Part shown: positions 43,377 through 59,398 of the stretch, piece after piece
How positions within the stretch are numbered: the first letter of the stretch is position 1
Layout of the letters: each line of letters starts with the position of its first letter
NCBI GenBank assembly: GCA_022813865.1
Contig: JALDZX010000022.1
Span: 1 to 64,000, forward strand
Length of the DNA: 64,000 bases
Direction of reading: 5' to 3'
DNA from: Xylographa opegraphella
Lineage: Eukaryota
Notes under the pieces: generated by a model
Databases searched by the model: none
The model's input: only the letters and a program-made list of their open reading frames with translations
Told to the model about the DNA's origin: nothing
Made by a program: the position numbers and the translations under genes

Positions 43377-43823
43377 AATAGTTGCCAAGGATGGCAAAGC
43401 GAGCGTATGGAAAGGTAGATGAGCATAGGTCAATAAAAATTGCAATGAGAGACGTATGAGGTAGAGGACGATATTGTCCATAGGGGGACGGACCTATTCT
43501 AGGAAGCATTGCAAGGAGTTTTCTCTACTTCTAGTAGCCGTAGAAGTTCCAGGAGTGATGTACTCCTATTGAGGGGTCGAGAAGACCTTGCAGAATATCA
43601 GTATCACCATTAGTACATTAGATAATGAGCAGCAGTGTTTGAAAGCACAACAACGGTTGTATTGTTCCATGTCTAGGCTGAGCCGTGCTCCTGCCCCAAC
43701 ACTTATGTTAGCCAATGTCTTCCACAATGTCCATTTCTGGTAAGTTGAAAATCGTCTTCCCCGCTCAGTTGTTTGATGCATACAGAAATATATATCTATA
43801 AGATTTTGCTCGAACAAAACCAC

Positions 43824-43973
43824 GGGGAATTAGCGCAATGGTAGCGCGTGGCTCTCCTAGTACTCGGACGAAAGTCGTAGTCAAGCCAAGGTTGAGGGTG
43901 TAGGTCTTTCCTCAACTTTGATTTTACATTCCCCAGTATACTGATTTCCTACAGTCGAGTCCCTTGTTCCTCG
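43824..43973 (+). tRNA. tRNA-Arg(CCT) with a canonical intron (43860-43882) and a spliceosomal-type intron (43900-43954)
   Basis: Acceptor stem GGGGAAT/GTTCCTC, D-arm GCGC-AATGGTA-GCGC, anticodon stem TGGCT/AGCCA with CCT at 43856-43858, T-arm GAGGG-T|TCGAGT-CCCTT, discriminator G. Mature length 72 nt. T5 run at 43987. Confidence 0.9.
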
Positions 43974-44317
43974 ATATGTTGTCTTGTTTTTGCAGTTTTT
44001 GGGACTATTTGGCCTGCGTTGTGGGCGGAACACGGACCGCCAAAAACCTCGCTCGCTTGGATCGTCAGTTGATTGATGTCTGTCTCGTCAGTTTCTTTTA
44101 GCTCTCTTCGAGTTGCACTTTCGGATCAGATTATCGTTCCAGCATGCTGCGTGTGCTTAAGAATTTCACTTTGTAATGGTCACACAGTTGATCACGGGCA
44201 TACACATTCATGGTATACGTTGAAGCTACTGGAAGACTATTGAACAATAAATTGGCGCTAGCTTTTGTCCCAGGCATATTCTTATCTCCTCAATAAACTT
44301 GAGCATACCCCCGAACG

Positions 44318-45368
44318 ATGCCTTTCTCCCACCACAGTCATTCGGGTCAATTCTGCCTTCATGCGAAAGACGACCTGGAAGCCATTGTCCAAACGGCCAT
44401 CAGTAAAGGGATGGGGACTCTGGTCCTGACCGAGCACATGCCTCGGGACCAGGAGACGGACCTGTACCCAGAAGAGGTTGGTTCCTCGCCCACCATGAGC
44501 TCCGCACGCTGAGTGGGGTTTAGATCGAAGCTGGCAGCACGACGGACAGCCTGTTCAAGACATTCGACGACTACTACATCGAAGCAAAACGACTGCAGTC
44601 GTCATACTCGCTACAGATAGACATCCTGGTTGGCGTGGAAACAGACTGGATACGCCCATCTTCTGAGCAGCTTATAGGAAACCTCATAGAAAAATACAGC
44701 TTCGACACCCTGATCGGCTCCGTGCACCATGTCCATGGTATTCCCACGGACTTTGACCGGGAAACATACGAACGGGCTCGGGCGGTATCTGGAGGCACGG
44801 ATGAGATGCTCTACGCGGATTACTACGATGCGCAGCTGAAGATGCTGGAGGCAGTGAAGCCACCGATTGTGGGCCATTTCGATGTCATCAGACTTCTGAG
44901 CGATGACCCGAATGCGAGCATGAAGAAGCACGACGTGGTGTGGAATAGAATCTTCAGGAATCTATCCTTCATATCAAGCTACGGTGGTATGCTCGAAATC
45001 AACACGGCGGCACTCCGGAAAGGGATGGATGAGCCGTACCCGCAAGGCGAGGTCTGCCAGGTTCGTTGCCGATACGCTGTCGGGTGATTTGGATGGCTAA
45101 TGAAGCCCAGGAGTTTTTGAAGATGAACGGAGCGTTCGTCCTGTCGGATGACAGTCACGGCGTTGGTCAAGTGGGATTCGGCTTCACGAGGGCGGTGGAG
45201 TTCATGGAAGGTATAGGTGTCCGGACGTTGATCGTCCTGCAGCGGGGACTGATGACACGAGACGCTCGCTTCCGAGGAGTGTTCGGACGGCCGGTGCGTG
45301 TCCCAGACCTTCAGAAGAAGCATACGTTCTTCCAGGCTCCAGGCACTGCAGCAAACAGCCGGCCATGA
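44318..45368 (+). CDS. HIS2: Histidinol-phosphatase (PHP family); exons 44318-44476, 44524-45060, 45111-45368
   Basis: MPFSHHSHSGQFC, LTEHMPR, GSVHHV, VGHFDVIRL, EINTAALRKG, LSDDSHG. Confidence 0.94.
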
Positions 45369-56496: not shown

Positions 56497-58569
56497 TCAA
56501 CATTTTAGTACCATCCCAACCCACCAGTCCACAAACTCTTGCAAGCCCAATTGCCTCGACGGCGTCCCTCCGATCCCAACGACCTCTTTCCCCAGGCCCT
56601 CTCTTTCCCTCCACTCCTTCTCCGCTTTCTCCCCAGCTCGCCGCACAATCTCATCCTCATTCTCCGCCCGATACAGATCGCACCTGTCGCACTCCCCACA
56701 CGTCCCGCCGGCCGGTCGGAAATGCTGGCAGAAATGGCGGTAACCCTCGCCTTCGCCATCACCGCCGCCTTCCTGGGCCTGCGCTCGAAGTATGATGTTC
56801 ATTTCGTCAGCTGGCTGTCGAATGACGTTTTGCGCGGCTGACGTCTTACGCCCGAGGCCTTGACGGCATATATAGCACATAGTGTACCCACAGACGCAAA
56901 CCATCTTGTTGCAGCCACTGTCTTTGACAAAGCCGAGGCCGCATCTGGGGCAGGTGCGTTTGAGTGCAGCGGTCCTAGCGGCTTCAACGGTCGTTCGAAG
57001 GGAGAGTGTTGCAGATTCATGGCACATGTGCGGATCCTGCCAAGGCTTGTGGCATTGAAGACACGAGGTACGAAGACAGGATGGTGAACGGCATTTGAAG
57101 CGAGAAGACAGGTAGGTCTTACGAGTTAGCTTGTCGCAGGAGTGATTAAGCAGCACCGAAGGCGCAGGGAGAGCAAACAGCCGTGCAAGAATGGCATATA
57201 GACAAAGCAATCCAAGGAAGTTGAAAGACACGGCAAGTAGAAGCAGTGTACGAACAGGCCGCGAGGTATTGAGACCCCAGCCAAGACTGTTAGAGAGATA
57301 GAGCTCATCAGCCTCGGCGTAGTTGCAAAACGGGCACCGCACGAGAGGAACTTGTGCTTTGATAAGCGCTTGATCGGCTAGACGTGACTCCAGCTTCTTC
57401 CACATCTGCACTCCCCCTTTGGCGCTATGACCGATCGCTCGGTAGGCGAGTTCGTGGGGTATGCAGCCGTTGCAAGGTATGGGATCTGTTGGAGCTAAAC
57501 AAGCTATCTGACCTCGGGTATGATCAATATTGAGACCCCATGATTGGCCGTAGAGTGCCTCTGAAACTGCATGCTGTATACAGTTGAAGCAAATTATATG
57601 GGTACCCGTCGTGCAAGTCGCCATATGCTCAAATGTCGTCTCTGAAAAGCAGCACTCGCACTCGTAAAGAGCACTGGCTTCTTCTGCCTCTTGCTCGTTG
57701 AGGAGGGTTGCAAGCTCAACATTGATGGCCTCTTGTGCTTGATGGCGCTTCTCAAGTAAAGGTTTCAAGATTGTCCTGTAAAGCTCAGAGTCAAGTTCCT
57801 TGTTTCCGCTTTCTCGTAGACTGGGGATCGGAACTGACCCCCCTTCTGCAGTTTTCGTCCAAATGAGCATAAAGTGTTTGTCTGATACTTCTTGCGCAGG
57901 CTTTCGCCACTTGAGCAAAAACGTAGAGAAGCTACTCCTCCAACTCTTGCTTGCTAGCCCTAGCAGCACCGGCCTCGAAGAAGTGTAGTAATGATTTTGC
58001 TCGGCCAAAACTCCGTCTACTGTACTTCGATTTAGGGCTTTAAACTCTTGATACAACACAGTCCTCACTGCTTGCTTGTAGTTTTCTGAGCGGAACAGTT
58101 CGTGTACAGGCACTTGTATCCTATCTCGGCCATCACCCACATCTCCTAGAAGCTGCCGGATCTCGGAGTACTGCTGCGGAGCGTCCGATCGAGTGTCCAG
58201 TCTATTGATGCGCCATCGGCTATTGACCCACTTGGCCTGGTGTTTGATCAACTGCTCCGCTACTATGTGCAGTCGGCTGTCTCCACTAAATGTACCAAGC
58301 ATCTCTCGAAAGACCTCAGGACGAACATTCGGAAAAATGTCGGCAAGCACGAGAAGGGCGTTGTTGAGGTCCGCAAGACTGGCGAATTTCCTGGGAGCCT
58401 GAGTGAAGACATCCCCGGCAGATGCCAGGACGGTCGAGAGCTCAGTACTGGCTGATCGGATGGTCTTAGGGACGGATGTACTCGAAGATGGGGAACGGAA
58501 TTGTCGTCGGCGGCTTTCAGACGGTAACTGCTCGTCTGAGCGAGAGGAGCGAAATGCGGCGAAGACCAT
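56497..58569 (-). CDS. RBR (RING-IBR-RING) E3 ubiquitin ligase with a CUE-like N-terminus (RNF216/TRIAD3-like)
   Basis: LADIFPNV (CUE-like), ECECCF...HIICFNC, RCPFCNY, SCLQCHKPW..HMC, CPRCGLGFVKDSGCNKMVCVCGYTMCYICR. First in-frame ATG at 58569. Confidence 0.9.
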   Translation of the reverse strand: MVFAAFRSSRSDEQLPSESRRRQFRSPSSSTSVPKTIRSASTELSTVLASAGDVFTQAPRKFASLADLNNALLVLADIFPNVRPEVFREMLGTFSGDSRLHIVAEQLIKHQAKWVNSRWRINRLDTRSDAPQQYSEIRQLLGDVGDGRDRIQVPVHELFRSENYKQAVRTVLYQEFKALNRSTVDGVLAEQNHYYTSSRPVLLGLASKSWRSSFSTFLLKWRKPAQEVSDKHFMLIWTKTAEGGSVPIPSLRESGNKELDSELYRTILKPLLEKRHQAQEAINVELATLLNEQEAEEASALYECECCFSETTFEHMATCTTGTHIICFNCIQHAVSEALYGQSWGLNIDHTRGQIACLAPTDPIPCNGCIPHELAYRAIGHSAKGGVQMWKKLESRLADQALIKAQVPLVRCPFCNYAEADELYLSNSLGWGLNTSRPVRTLLLLAVSFNFLGLLCLYAILARLFALPAPSVLLNHSCDKLTRKTYLSSRFKCRSPSCLRTSCLQCHKPWQDPHMCHESATLSLRTTVEAARTAALKRTCPRCGLGFVKDSGCNKMVCVCGYTMCYICRQGLGRKTSAAQNVIRQPADEMNIILRAQAQEGGGDGEGEGYRHFCQHFRPAGGTCGECDRCDLYRAENEDEIVRRAGEKAEKEWREREGLGKEVVGIGGTPSRQLGLQEFVDWWVGMVLKC

Positions 58570-58735
58570 CTTCTTAAGGATGGCTGGCGTGTGGGCCCTA
58601 CATGCTGCTGGGAGTGAAAGACAGCTCTGTCCTTTCAGTCGAGAAGAGTGTGTAGGTGCAAAGACCAAGCTATCAAACAAGCCTCAGTCAAATTTGTAAT
58701 AATATTGTAAAATAAGAACTCTCTCGCTTAAAACA

Positions 58736-58890
58736 GGCCTGATGGTACGAAAATACGAAATCGAGTTGAGTTTGTCTCTTTGCTGACAATTTGCACAGGT
58801 CTAGTGGTATGATTGTCGCTTCGGGTTCGCCTGAGTATCTTAGATACTTAGATTTGTGACAGGCCCCGGGTTCAAATCCCGGTCAGGCCC
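58736..58890 (+). tRNA. tRNA-Pro(CGG) with a spliceosomal-type intron (58745-58798) and a canonical intron (58826-58854)
   Basis: Acceptor stem GGCCTGA/TCAGGCC (perfect), TG|GTCTAGTGGTATGAT, anticodon stem GTCGC/GTGAC with CGG at 58822-58824, T-arm CCGGG-TTCAAAT-CCCGG, discriminator C. Mature length 72 nt. T5 run at 58897. Confidence 0.92.
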
Positions 58891-59398
58891 TGAATATTTT
58901 TGTCGTCATTCTCGATCGCGGTACGACGGCGGTACATGGGCACTATCGTCTTTATTCACTGTTGAGAACAATGTATGCACTCACTATAGCCAGACAATCG
59001 GTAACTTTTTGCCAACCTAAACCAAGCGACAGTCCTTCTTTGGGTAGAAATGCCTGGGCGTCTTGACGATACAGATTATTTACGATCCATCGAGCTTGTG
59101 GAAACATCAATCGATTACGCTCTATTGGTCGTTGTGAATAACATCTATTTGAACGTGCGAAATGTGCAGCGCAGAGACGTAGTTTCATACTAGATACCTA
59201 TCATAAGCTCCATACGCGACGTTAAGGAAATGGGGTATTTTAGCAATAGCAACACCAGGAAATGCCATATCAATACAGTGATGATTTCCGTAAGCCATAG
59301 TCCTTCCGTGAAGCACAATATCATCTGCGAGATTCAGCAATAGTCCTCTAAACCATGACACCGTAGCTCCAGTCTTCAATAATATCAACATGCTGTAA

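Follow-up and report, generated by a model that had tools for sequence, protein, structure and literature searches.

mRNA-type introns in the promoter boxes of two fungal tRNA genes: candidates for TATA-placed Pol III transcription followed by spliceosomal splicing

In the textbook nuclear tRNA gene the A box and the B box are each contiguous, and no introns are known other than those of the endonuclease type at position 37/38. TFIIIC is anchored in yeasts mainly by the B box, and the start site of yeast tRNA genes lies roughly 10-20 bp upstream of the A box. A TATA-like motif before the tRNA genes of S. pombe and plants was reportedly noted by Hamada et al. in 2001. In the tRNA genes of S. 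pombe and A. thaliana this motif is placed at -34 to -28 (PMC11547032), and such TATA-dependent genes keep contiguous A and B boxes. The U6 gene of S. pombe goes further, as it is described as made by Pol III, spliced by the spliceosome and provided with a B block inside the intron (PMC5855946). According to the same source, SNR6 of S. cerevisiae works with a TATA element and an A block, its B block lying at a distance of about 200 bp, an arrangement which shows that Pol III promoters tolerate re-spaced boxes. For Cyanidioschyzon merolae, tRNA genes with interrupted A and B boxes have been reported to have TATA-like sequences upstream and T stretches downstream, and were proposed to be transcribed by Pol III independently of TFIIIC (PMC3978253). 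This species reportedly lacks the TFIIIC subunits that bind the boxes. Finally, tRNA-Sec of Trypanosoma brucei is reported as a nuclear tRNA made by Pol II (PMC2943599); it has no spliceosomal intron and belongs to a different lineage.

Here we compare with these systems two tRNA genes, tRNA-Arg(CCT) and tRNA-Pro(CGG), that lie in a 64-kb window (the whole stretch of DNA analysed, 64,000 nucleotides) from Xylographa opegraphella. What sets the two genes apart is that an mRNA-type intron lies in the tRNA promoter boxes themselves, in addition to a canonical tRNA intron in the anticodon loop (Table 1). No description of spliceosomal introns in tRNA genes was found in the literature searched, which was mostly outside subscription journals. 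The promoter puzzle has a known counterpart in C. merolae, and the splicing has one in S. pombe U6.

Table 1. Features of the two split tRNA genes and of the HIS2 neighbour (positions in the window).
Feature	Position	Strand	Details
TATA-like AT-rich block before tRNA-Arg	43787..43804	+	TATATAT, first T at 43789 = -35 from G1; 7/8 match to TATAWAWR
tRNA-Arg exon 1 (positions 1-37)	43824..43859	+	ARAGORN
Canonical tRNA intron of Arg, 23 nt, position 37/38	43860..43882	+	ARAGORN
tRNA-Arg exon 2 (positions 38-54), ending in GGT of the B box	43883..43899	+	
Arg spliceosomal-type intron, 55 nt, between T54 and T55	43900..43954	+	GTAGGT, CTGAT (A at 43944), ACAG
tRNA-Arg exon 3 (T55 to G73), beginning with the B-box remnant TCGAGTCC	43955..43973	+	
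Two T5 runs, Pol III terminator-like	43987-43991 and 43996-44000	+	first = 14 nt past the Arg 3' end
HIS2-like histidinol phosphatase gene, PHP domain	44318..45365	+	PF02811, E = 6.6e-09
TATA-like AT-rich block before tRNA-Pro	58697..58716	+	TAATATT from 58700 = -36 from G1
tRNA-Pro exon 1, 9 nt (positions 1-9)	58736..58744	+	
Pro spliceosomal-type intron, 54 nt, between G9 and G10	58745..58798	+	GTACGA, CTGAC (A at 58786), CACAG
tRNA-Pro exon 2 (positions 10-37)	58799..58825	+	
Canonical tRNA intron of Pro, 29 nt, anticodon loop	58826..58854	+	ARAGORN
tRNA-Pro exon 3 (position 38 to C73)	58855..58890	+	
T5 run, Pol III terminator-like	58897..58901	+	7 nt past the tRNA-Pro 3' end

Neither ARAGORN nor Rfam found a tRNA in the raw 64-kb window. 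With ARAGORN, the cloverleaf of tRNA-Arg(CCT) at 43824-43973 appears only once a GT..AG stretch of 55 nt (43900-43954) is excised, and that of tRNA-Pro(CGG) at 58736-58890 only once 54 nt (58745-58798), again GT..AG, are removed. After excision both cloverleaves have the conserved nucleotides and the anticodon. As a brute-force control, each GT..AG stretch of the window was excised on both strands and ARAGORN was asked for a tRNA spanning the joint. When a branch motif was required, a tRNA across the junction resulted from 2 of 11,634 excisions. Without that requirement 130,226 GT..AG excisions of 25-300 nt gave four tRNAs, two of which are genuine (Arg and Pro), while the other two are “Cys” models inside the Pro locus that we judged spurious. 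A “tRNA-Ser(act)” with an 81-nt intron at 27/28, returned by a relaxed ARAGORN run on the unspliced Pro locus, was discarded as an artefact, and SNORD49 from a permissive Rfam scan of 43700-44100 is a chance match (E = 6.8). With the intron removed, tRNA-Arg agrees at 70 of 72 positions with L007 and L004, two metagenomic genes that are intron-free at this site, and at 65-68 of 72 with three further metagenomic genes; none of its differences from these relatives is close to the splice junction. The Arg and Pro tRNA genes are thus real, and they are the sole tRNA genes detectable in the window.

The two extra introns carry the signal pattern of spliceosomal (U2-type) introns. Both have GT..AG ends, and a fungal branch motif of the form CTRAY stands shortly before the 3' end, CTGAT at 10 nt in Arg and CTGAC at 12 nt in Pro. 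Compared with GTRNGT, the Arg 5' site GTAGGT fits and the Pro 5' site GTACGA is off at the last letter. In length and build both introns resemble the 50-nt mRNA intron of the neighbouring HIS2 gene (45061-45110, GTTCGT..CTAAT..CAG with CTAAT 10 nt from the end, as obtained from a reading of the frames). The non-canonical positions of the introns recall the disrupted (multi-intron and permuted) tRNA genes of C. merolae and the ectopic introns of the Guillardia theta nucleomorph, insofar as these are described in the sources. Those introns, however, are cut by the tRNA-splicing endonuclease at a bulge-helix-bulge, whereas here we find GT..AG ends and a branch motif and no such fold. In the minimum-energy folds, a 12-bp hairpin carries the Arg 5' junction in its loop and the Pro 5' junction is part of a helix; neither fold has 3-nt bulges flanking a 4-bp helix, and a bulge-helix-bulge is thus missing from the junctions of both genes. 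An endonuclease route for the extra introns is therefore unlikely.

How do the introns affect the internal promoters? In tRNA-Arg the A box TAGCGCAATGG (43831-43841) is intact, contiguous and in its normal place in exon 1, and the B box is bisected by the intron at T54|T55 into GGT and TCGAGTCC. The sequence-only reading had proposed that this B box exists only after splicing, and we can confirm it: the genomic 3' remnant, CAG|TCGAGTCC, has three mismatches to GGTTCGANNCC, and matches of that quality occur about once per 107 nt in the window, while 43700-44320 holds no match to GGTTCGANNCC at two or fewer mismatches on either strand. There is consequently no spare B box in the intron, which is the solution of S. 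pombe U6, and none past the terminator, which is the solution of SNR6, where an intact B block stands downstream of the terminator. In other respects S. pombe U6 is similar: it is described as a short gene of Pol III type in which TATA lies upstream and an A block inside, with an oligo-T end and a spliceosomal intron of about 50 nt. A further difference is that U6 belongs to the spliceosome, and reverse splicing at the active site is the explanation given for its intron; a tRNA has no such link.

The Pro gene is in a different state. Its B box GGTTCAAATCC (58869-58879) is intact and contiguous in exon 3, and its A box is split between G9 and G10. The same reading had taken the Pro A box to be broken in the manner of the Arg B box; the split is there, but the box is not lost, as genomic AGGTCTAGTGG (58797-58807) agrees with the spliced TGGTCTAGTGG in 10 of 11 letters. 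It is the CAG at the end of the intron that keeps the Pro A box readable in the DNA. The box now stands 61 bp downstream of G1 and 54 bp away from the 9-nt exon 1. It has thus been moved by 54 bp and not destroyed, and the problem of the Pro gene is one of geometry: a start set from the displaced box would lie within the intron, and exon 1 would be missing from the transcript. A promoter that depends on TFIIIC only can therefore explain neither gene, the Arg gene being without a B box and the Pro start being misplaced. The anatomy of the genes and the state of their boxes are direct observations on the DNA, as are the flanking signals described below, their rarity in the window and the terminators shared with relatives. 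In the state of their boxes the two genes differ from the TATA-dependent tRNA genes of S. pombe and plants with their contiguous boxes.

AT-rich, TATA-like sequence upstream of both genes and T5 runs downstream of them had also been pointed out, and both kinds of signal are present (Table 1). The AT content of the segment from -45 to -20 is 0.81 in Arg and 0.88 in Pro, for which the chance in 26-nt segments outside long ORFs is P(>=0.80) = 0.016 and P(>=0.88) = 0.0045, respectively. The 64 kb contain 35 AT-rich islands, two of which directly precede the Arg and Pro tRNA genes. Counted from G1, the first T of the TATA-like element lies 35-36 nt upstream in both genes, so that transcription is predicted to start about 5 nt before the tRNA. 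This position matches that of the TATA in the tRNA genes of S. pombe and A. thaliana. The blocks may, on the other hand, serve neighbouring genes: the Pro block falls within the promoter region of a divergent gene whose ATG (58569, minus strand) is 128 nt away, and a same-strand gene precedes the Arg block. Downstream, the observed T5 runs are rare by the standard of the window, where a randomly chosen point has a T5 run beginning within 25 nt with a frequency of 0.019. Inside the genes the longest T run is 4 in Arg (T4 at 43922, in the intron) and 3 in Pro, and there is no internal T5.

For comparison with other fungi, metagenomes were scanned with a 20-letter pattern derived from the D and anticodon arms of tRNA-Arg. 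Twelve of the 13 loci obtained are tRNA-Arg(CCT), and L003 is unrelated. For L004 and L012 the ARAGORN label “tRNA-Glu(ttc)” is regarded as a mis-parse; we read both as Arg(CCT) with a canonical intron because both have the CTCCTA loop in common with the others. None of the 12 relatives has the intron at 54/55 in the T loop, and two lineages among them (L005/L008 and L006/L013) have GT-AG introns at other positions. In L005 and L008 a 49-nt intron, GTAAGT..CCTAG, lies in the variable loop. We prefer this reading because excision yields the 3' half of the intron-free L010, and the ARAGORN parse with a 45-nt intron in the anticodon loop was set aside for it. L006 and L013 probably have a GT-AG intron of 111 and 107 nt, respectively, after position 3 (GTACGT..CTAAT/CTAAC..TAG); the ARAGORN alternative has no upstream exon and leaves a T1·C72 mismatch. 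The sequence TATATATA is found 46-47 nt before G1 in both. Between these two loci the exons and the canonical intron agree at 95 of 95 positions, against 80-87% identity for the flanks and 58% for the GT-AG intron, in which the splice and branch signals (GTACGT, CTAAT/CTAAC, TAG) are nevertheless retained. From this comparison, mRNA-type introns appear to have entered tRNA-Arg(CCT) at three places in different fungi, the one at position 3 being probable. A corresponding search of genome contigs for Pro relatives gave four intron-free, eukaryote-like but non-fungal-looking loci in bacterial bins, which are uninformative.

The relatives also bear on the flanking signals. In all 12 tRNA-Arg(CCT) relatives, including the four with GT-AG introns, a run of at least five T starts no more than 19 nt past the 3' end, and a Pol III-type end signal is thus retained in every case, split or unsplit. 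A TATA-like TATAAATA stands at -31 in L010 and L011, which are genes without extra introns, and L007 has no TATA-like motif upstream, where A+T is 38%. Because TATA-like blocks are present before relatives without such introns, they are not a special adaptation to the introns.

One could suppose that one or both genes are out of use, recently disabled copies that record an intron gain, with decoding left to unsplit copies or to the isoacceptors Arg-UCU and Pro-UGG. In favour of this explanation, a U34 isoacceptor is able to read the codons of both tRNAs, whose anticodons have C34, and S. cerevisiae is not known to have a Pro-CGG and has a single copy of Arg-CCU. The output of the genes could moreover be nil, given the lack of a B box in Arg and a start inside the intron in Pro. 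The condition of the genes speaks against disuse, however: both cloverleaves are flawless after excision, Arg being only 2 of 72 positions off its intron-free relatives with neither change near the junction, and nothing is damaged in the splice signals, the TATA-like block or the T5 run. Two out of two tRNA genes of this kind in a 64-kb window would be unexpected for rare wrecks, and L006 and L013 retain their split gene across a flank divergence of about 17-20%. We consider disuse distinctly improbable.

A second question is which polymerase makes the precursors. The sequence-only reading had offered TATA-driven Pol III or Pol II, and while this dilemma is real, the sequence favours TATA-driven Pol III because T5 runs follow the 3' ends, no T5 lies inside the genes, and the TATA-like block has the position known from S. 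pombe and plants. T runs are needed by Pol III and are of no use to Pol II, and we take them as the best available discriminator between the polymerases here. The roughly 376 nt of distinct GT-AG intron sequence contain no T5, but only about 0.3 would be expected, and this count is hence uninformative on the avoidance of T runs. It had further been argued that Pol II would be needed for access of the spliceosome. This argument is weak, since U6 of S. pombe is described as a Pol III transcript that is spliced by the spliceosome (PMC5855946).

The alternative would be that both genes are now Pol II units like snRNA and snoRNA genes, with a TATA-dependent promoter, a capped precursor, co-transcriptional splicing, and excision of the tRNA by RNase P and RNase Z. 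This explanation accounts for the complete mRNA-type signals in the introns and for an internal promoter that is damaged in Arg and would start inside the intron in Pro; the TATA-like blocks are present as well, and the Pro gene adjoins a divergent Pol II promoter region. As precedents, it can draw on the tRNA-Sec of T. brucei as a natural Pol II-made tRNA and on the spliceosomal introns reported in fungal U3 genes (PMC5832005). On the other side stand the T5 runs directly after both genes and after the 12 relatives, those with introns included, the absence of a T5 inside the genes, a distance from TATA to G1 that fits a 5-nt pre-tRNA leader, and the precedent of U6. Furthermore, an AATAAA-type signal was not seen when the 40 nt directly downstream were inspected by eye. 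We regard Pol II transcription of both genes as unlikely, and it is similarly doubtful that a set of nuclear tRNA genes in this fungus has left the TFIIIC-dependent Pol III path for TATA-driven Pol II.

For tRNA-Arg a variant of Pol II transcription has to be weighed as well, in which the tRNA is cut from a longer Pol II transcript, either the 5' leader of HIS2 or read-through from the upstream DUF1774 gene. The gap of about 345 nt between tRNA-Arg and HIS2 on the same strand, on which the proposal of a shared precursor was based, holds at 344 nt from the tRNA 3' end to the HIS2 ATG (44318). The DUF1774 gene is on that strand too, upstream of tRNA-Arg and its AT-rich block. A shared tRNA-Arg/HIS2 precursor is nevertheless disfavoured, because two T5 runs stand between the two genes. 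The tRNA has its own TATA-like block at the distance typical of Pol III, excision of the tRNA would uncap the HIS2 mRNA, and the Pro gene has no same-strand neighbour yet shows the same layout. A longer common transcript is thus very improbable.

We therefore return to TATA-placed transcription by Pol III. In our favoured model, to which we assign a probability of roughly 0.55, both genes are live and would be transcribed by Pol III from the upstream TATA-like element and then spliced by the spliceosome, as in S. pombe pre-U6. TFIIIB would be set on the TATA-like element, with a start about 5 nt before G1, and the correctly placed internal box would assist, which for Arg is the A box and for Pro the B box, together with the displaced A box. 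Transcription would stop at the T5 run just past the gene, giving a precursor of about 170 nt. The spliceosome would act first on this precursor, in the nucleus; we infer this order because the Arg T-loop intron and the Pro D-arm intron would block formation of the elbow. The elbow between D and T loop could then form, and RNase P, RNase Z and the tRNA endonuclease and ligase would complete the tRNA. The polymerase, the start site, the splicing and the order of the processing steps are parts of the model that we infer from the anatomy and flanking signals described above.

Several points count against this model. Between -120 and +350 of the Arg gene there is no B box that could be used, and the Pro 5' splice site, GTACGA, is off-consensus at its last letter. 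A recent switch of polymerase could have left the T5 runs behind as relics. In filamentous ascomycetes, TATA-only transcription of a tRNA gene by Pol III is, to our knowledge, unproven. In human cells, spliceosomal introns reportedly fail to serve reporters carried on Pol III transcripts (10.64898/2026.09.26.754642).

Can the spliceosome serve Pol III transcripts besides U6, and how much internal promoter does a fungal tRNA gene need when it is given a TATA element? The two genes pose both questions. If, instead, the Pol II explanation were true, the supply of these tRNAs would depend on Pol II and the spliceosome. Because split tRNA genes of this kind are invisible to ARAGORN and Rfam, the tRNA sets of these fungi would be under-annotated, and some isoacceptors would look “missing”.

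According to the predicted fold of the split tRNA-Arg(CCT) precursor, the exon segment CAAGGTTGAGGG, which spans the end of the anticodon stem, the variable loop and the 5' strand of the T-stem, forms 12 consecutive pairs with intron positions 10-21. The 10-nt loop that closes this helix would hold the 5' splice site GTAGGT. When the intron was shuffled, 41 of 2000 sequences gave a helix as long. We hypothesize that the pairing could be a relic of the origin of the intron, as an inverted copy of the exon; alternatively, it could serve in presenting the 5' splice site. The same intron also carries ATTCCCC, which is fully complementary to GGGGAAT, the 5' strand of the acceptor stem; the real 3' acceptor strand, GTTCCTC, matches that strand less well, with two G·U pairs. 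Judged by complementarity, the intronic copy could compete for acceptor-stem pairing in the unspliced precursor.

Features of the two split tRNA genes, their surroundings and metagenomic relatives
Feature	Sequence	Positions	Strand	Remarks
Predicted exon-intron hairpin, tRNA-Arg(CCT)	window	43887-43920		
ATTCCCC in tRNA-Arg intron	window	43928-43934		
Long open frame	window	56497-58683	minus	728 codons stop to stop; first ATG 58569
GTAAGT..CCTAG intron, variable loop of tRNA-Arg(CCT)	L005	430-478	tRNA orientation	49 nt; metagenomic
GTAAGT..CCTAG intron, variable loop of tRNA-Arg(CCT)	L008	352-400	tRNA orientation	49 nt; metagenomic
Probable GT-AG intron of tRNA-Arg(CCT), following position 3	L006	277-387		
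Counterpart of the L006 intron	L013			107 nt

Among the metagenomic tRNA-Arg(CCT) relatives, the two genes with an intron in the variable loop (L005 and L008) lack the canonical anticodon-loop intron, and both of their internal promoter boxes are intact, but the spacing is widened by 49 bp. In L006 and L013, the probable intron after position 3 would leave a first exon of only 3 nt. The first ~37 nt of this intron are nearly identical between the two loci, whereas the middle has diverged, and TATATATA lies 46-47 nt upstream of G1 in both. Such a pattern of conservation could mark an internal promoter element; the likeness proposed is to S. pombe U6, whose intron contains a promoter element.

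The minus-strand open frame is divergent from tRNA-Pro(CGG), with 167 nt between its first ATG and G1 of the tRNA, and the AT-rich block upstream of tRNA-Pro is common to both. The scan for tRNA-Pro relatives also returned contigs assigned to bacterial metagenome-assembled genomes (L014-L017) that bear tRNA-Pro(CGG) genes of eukaryotic type, in some cases arranged in tandem with further tRNA genes; these contigs are probably eukaryotic contamination of the bacterial bins.

Both tRNA genes detectable within the 64-kb window (1-64000, including 50 N) contain an intron of the spliceosomal type, which suggests that such tRNA genes are common in the genome of Xylographa opegraphella.
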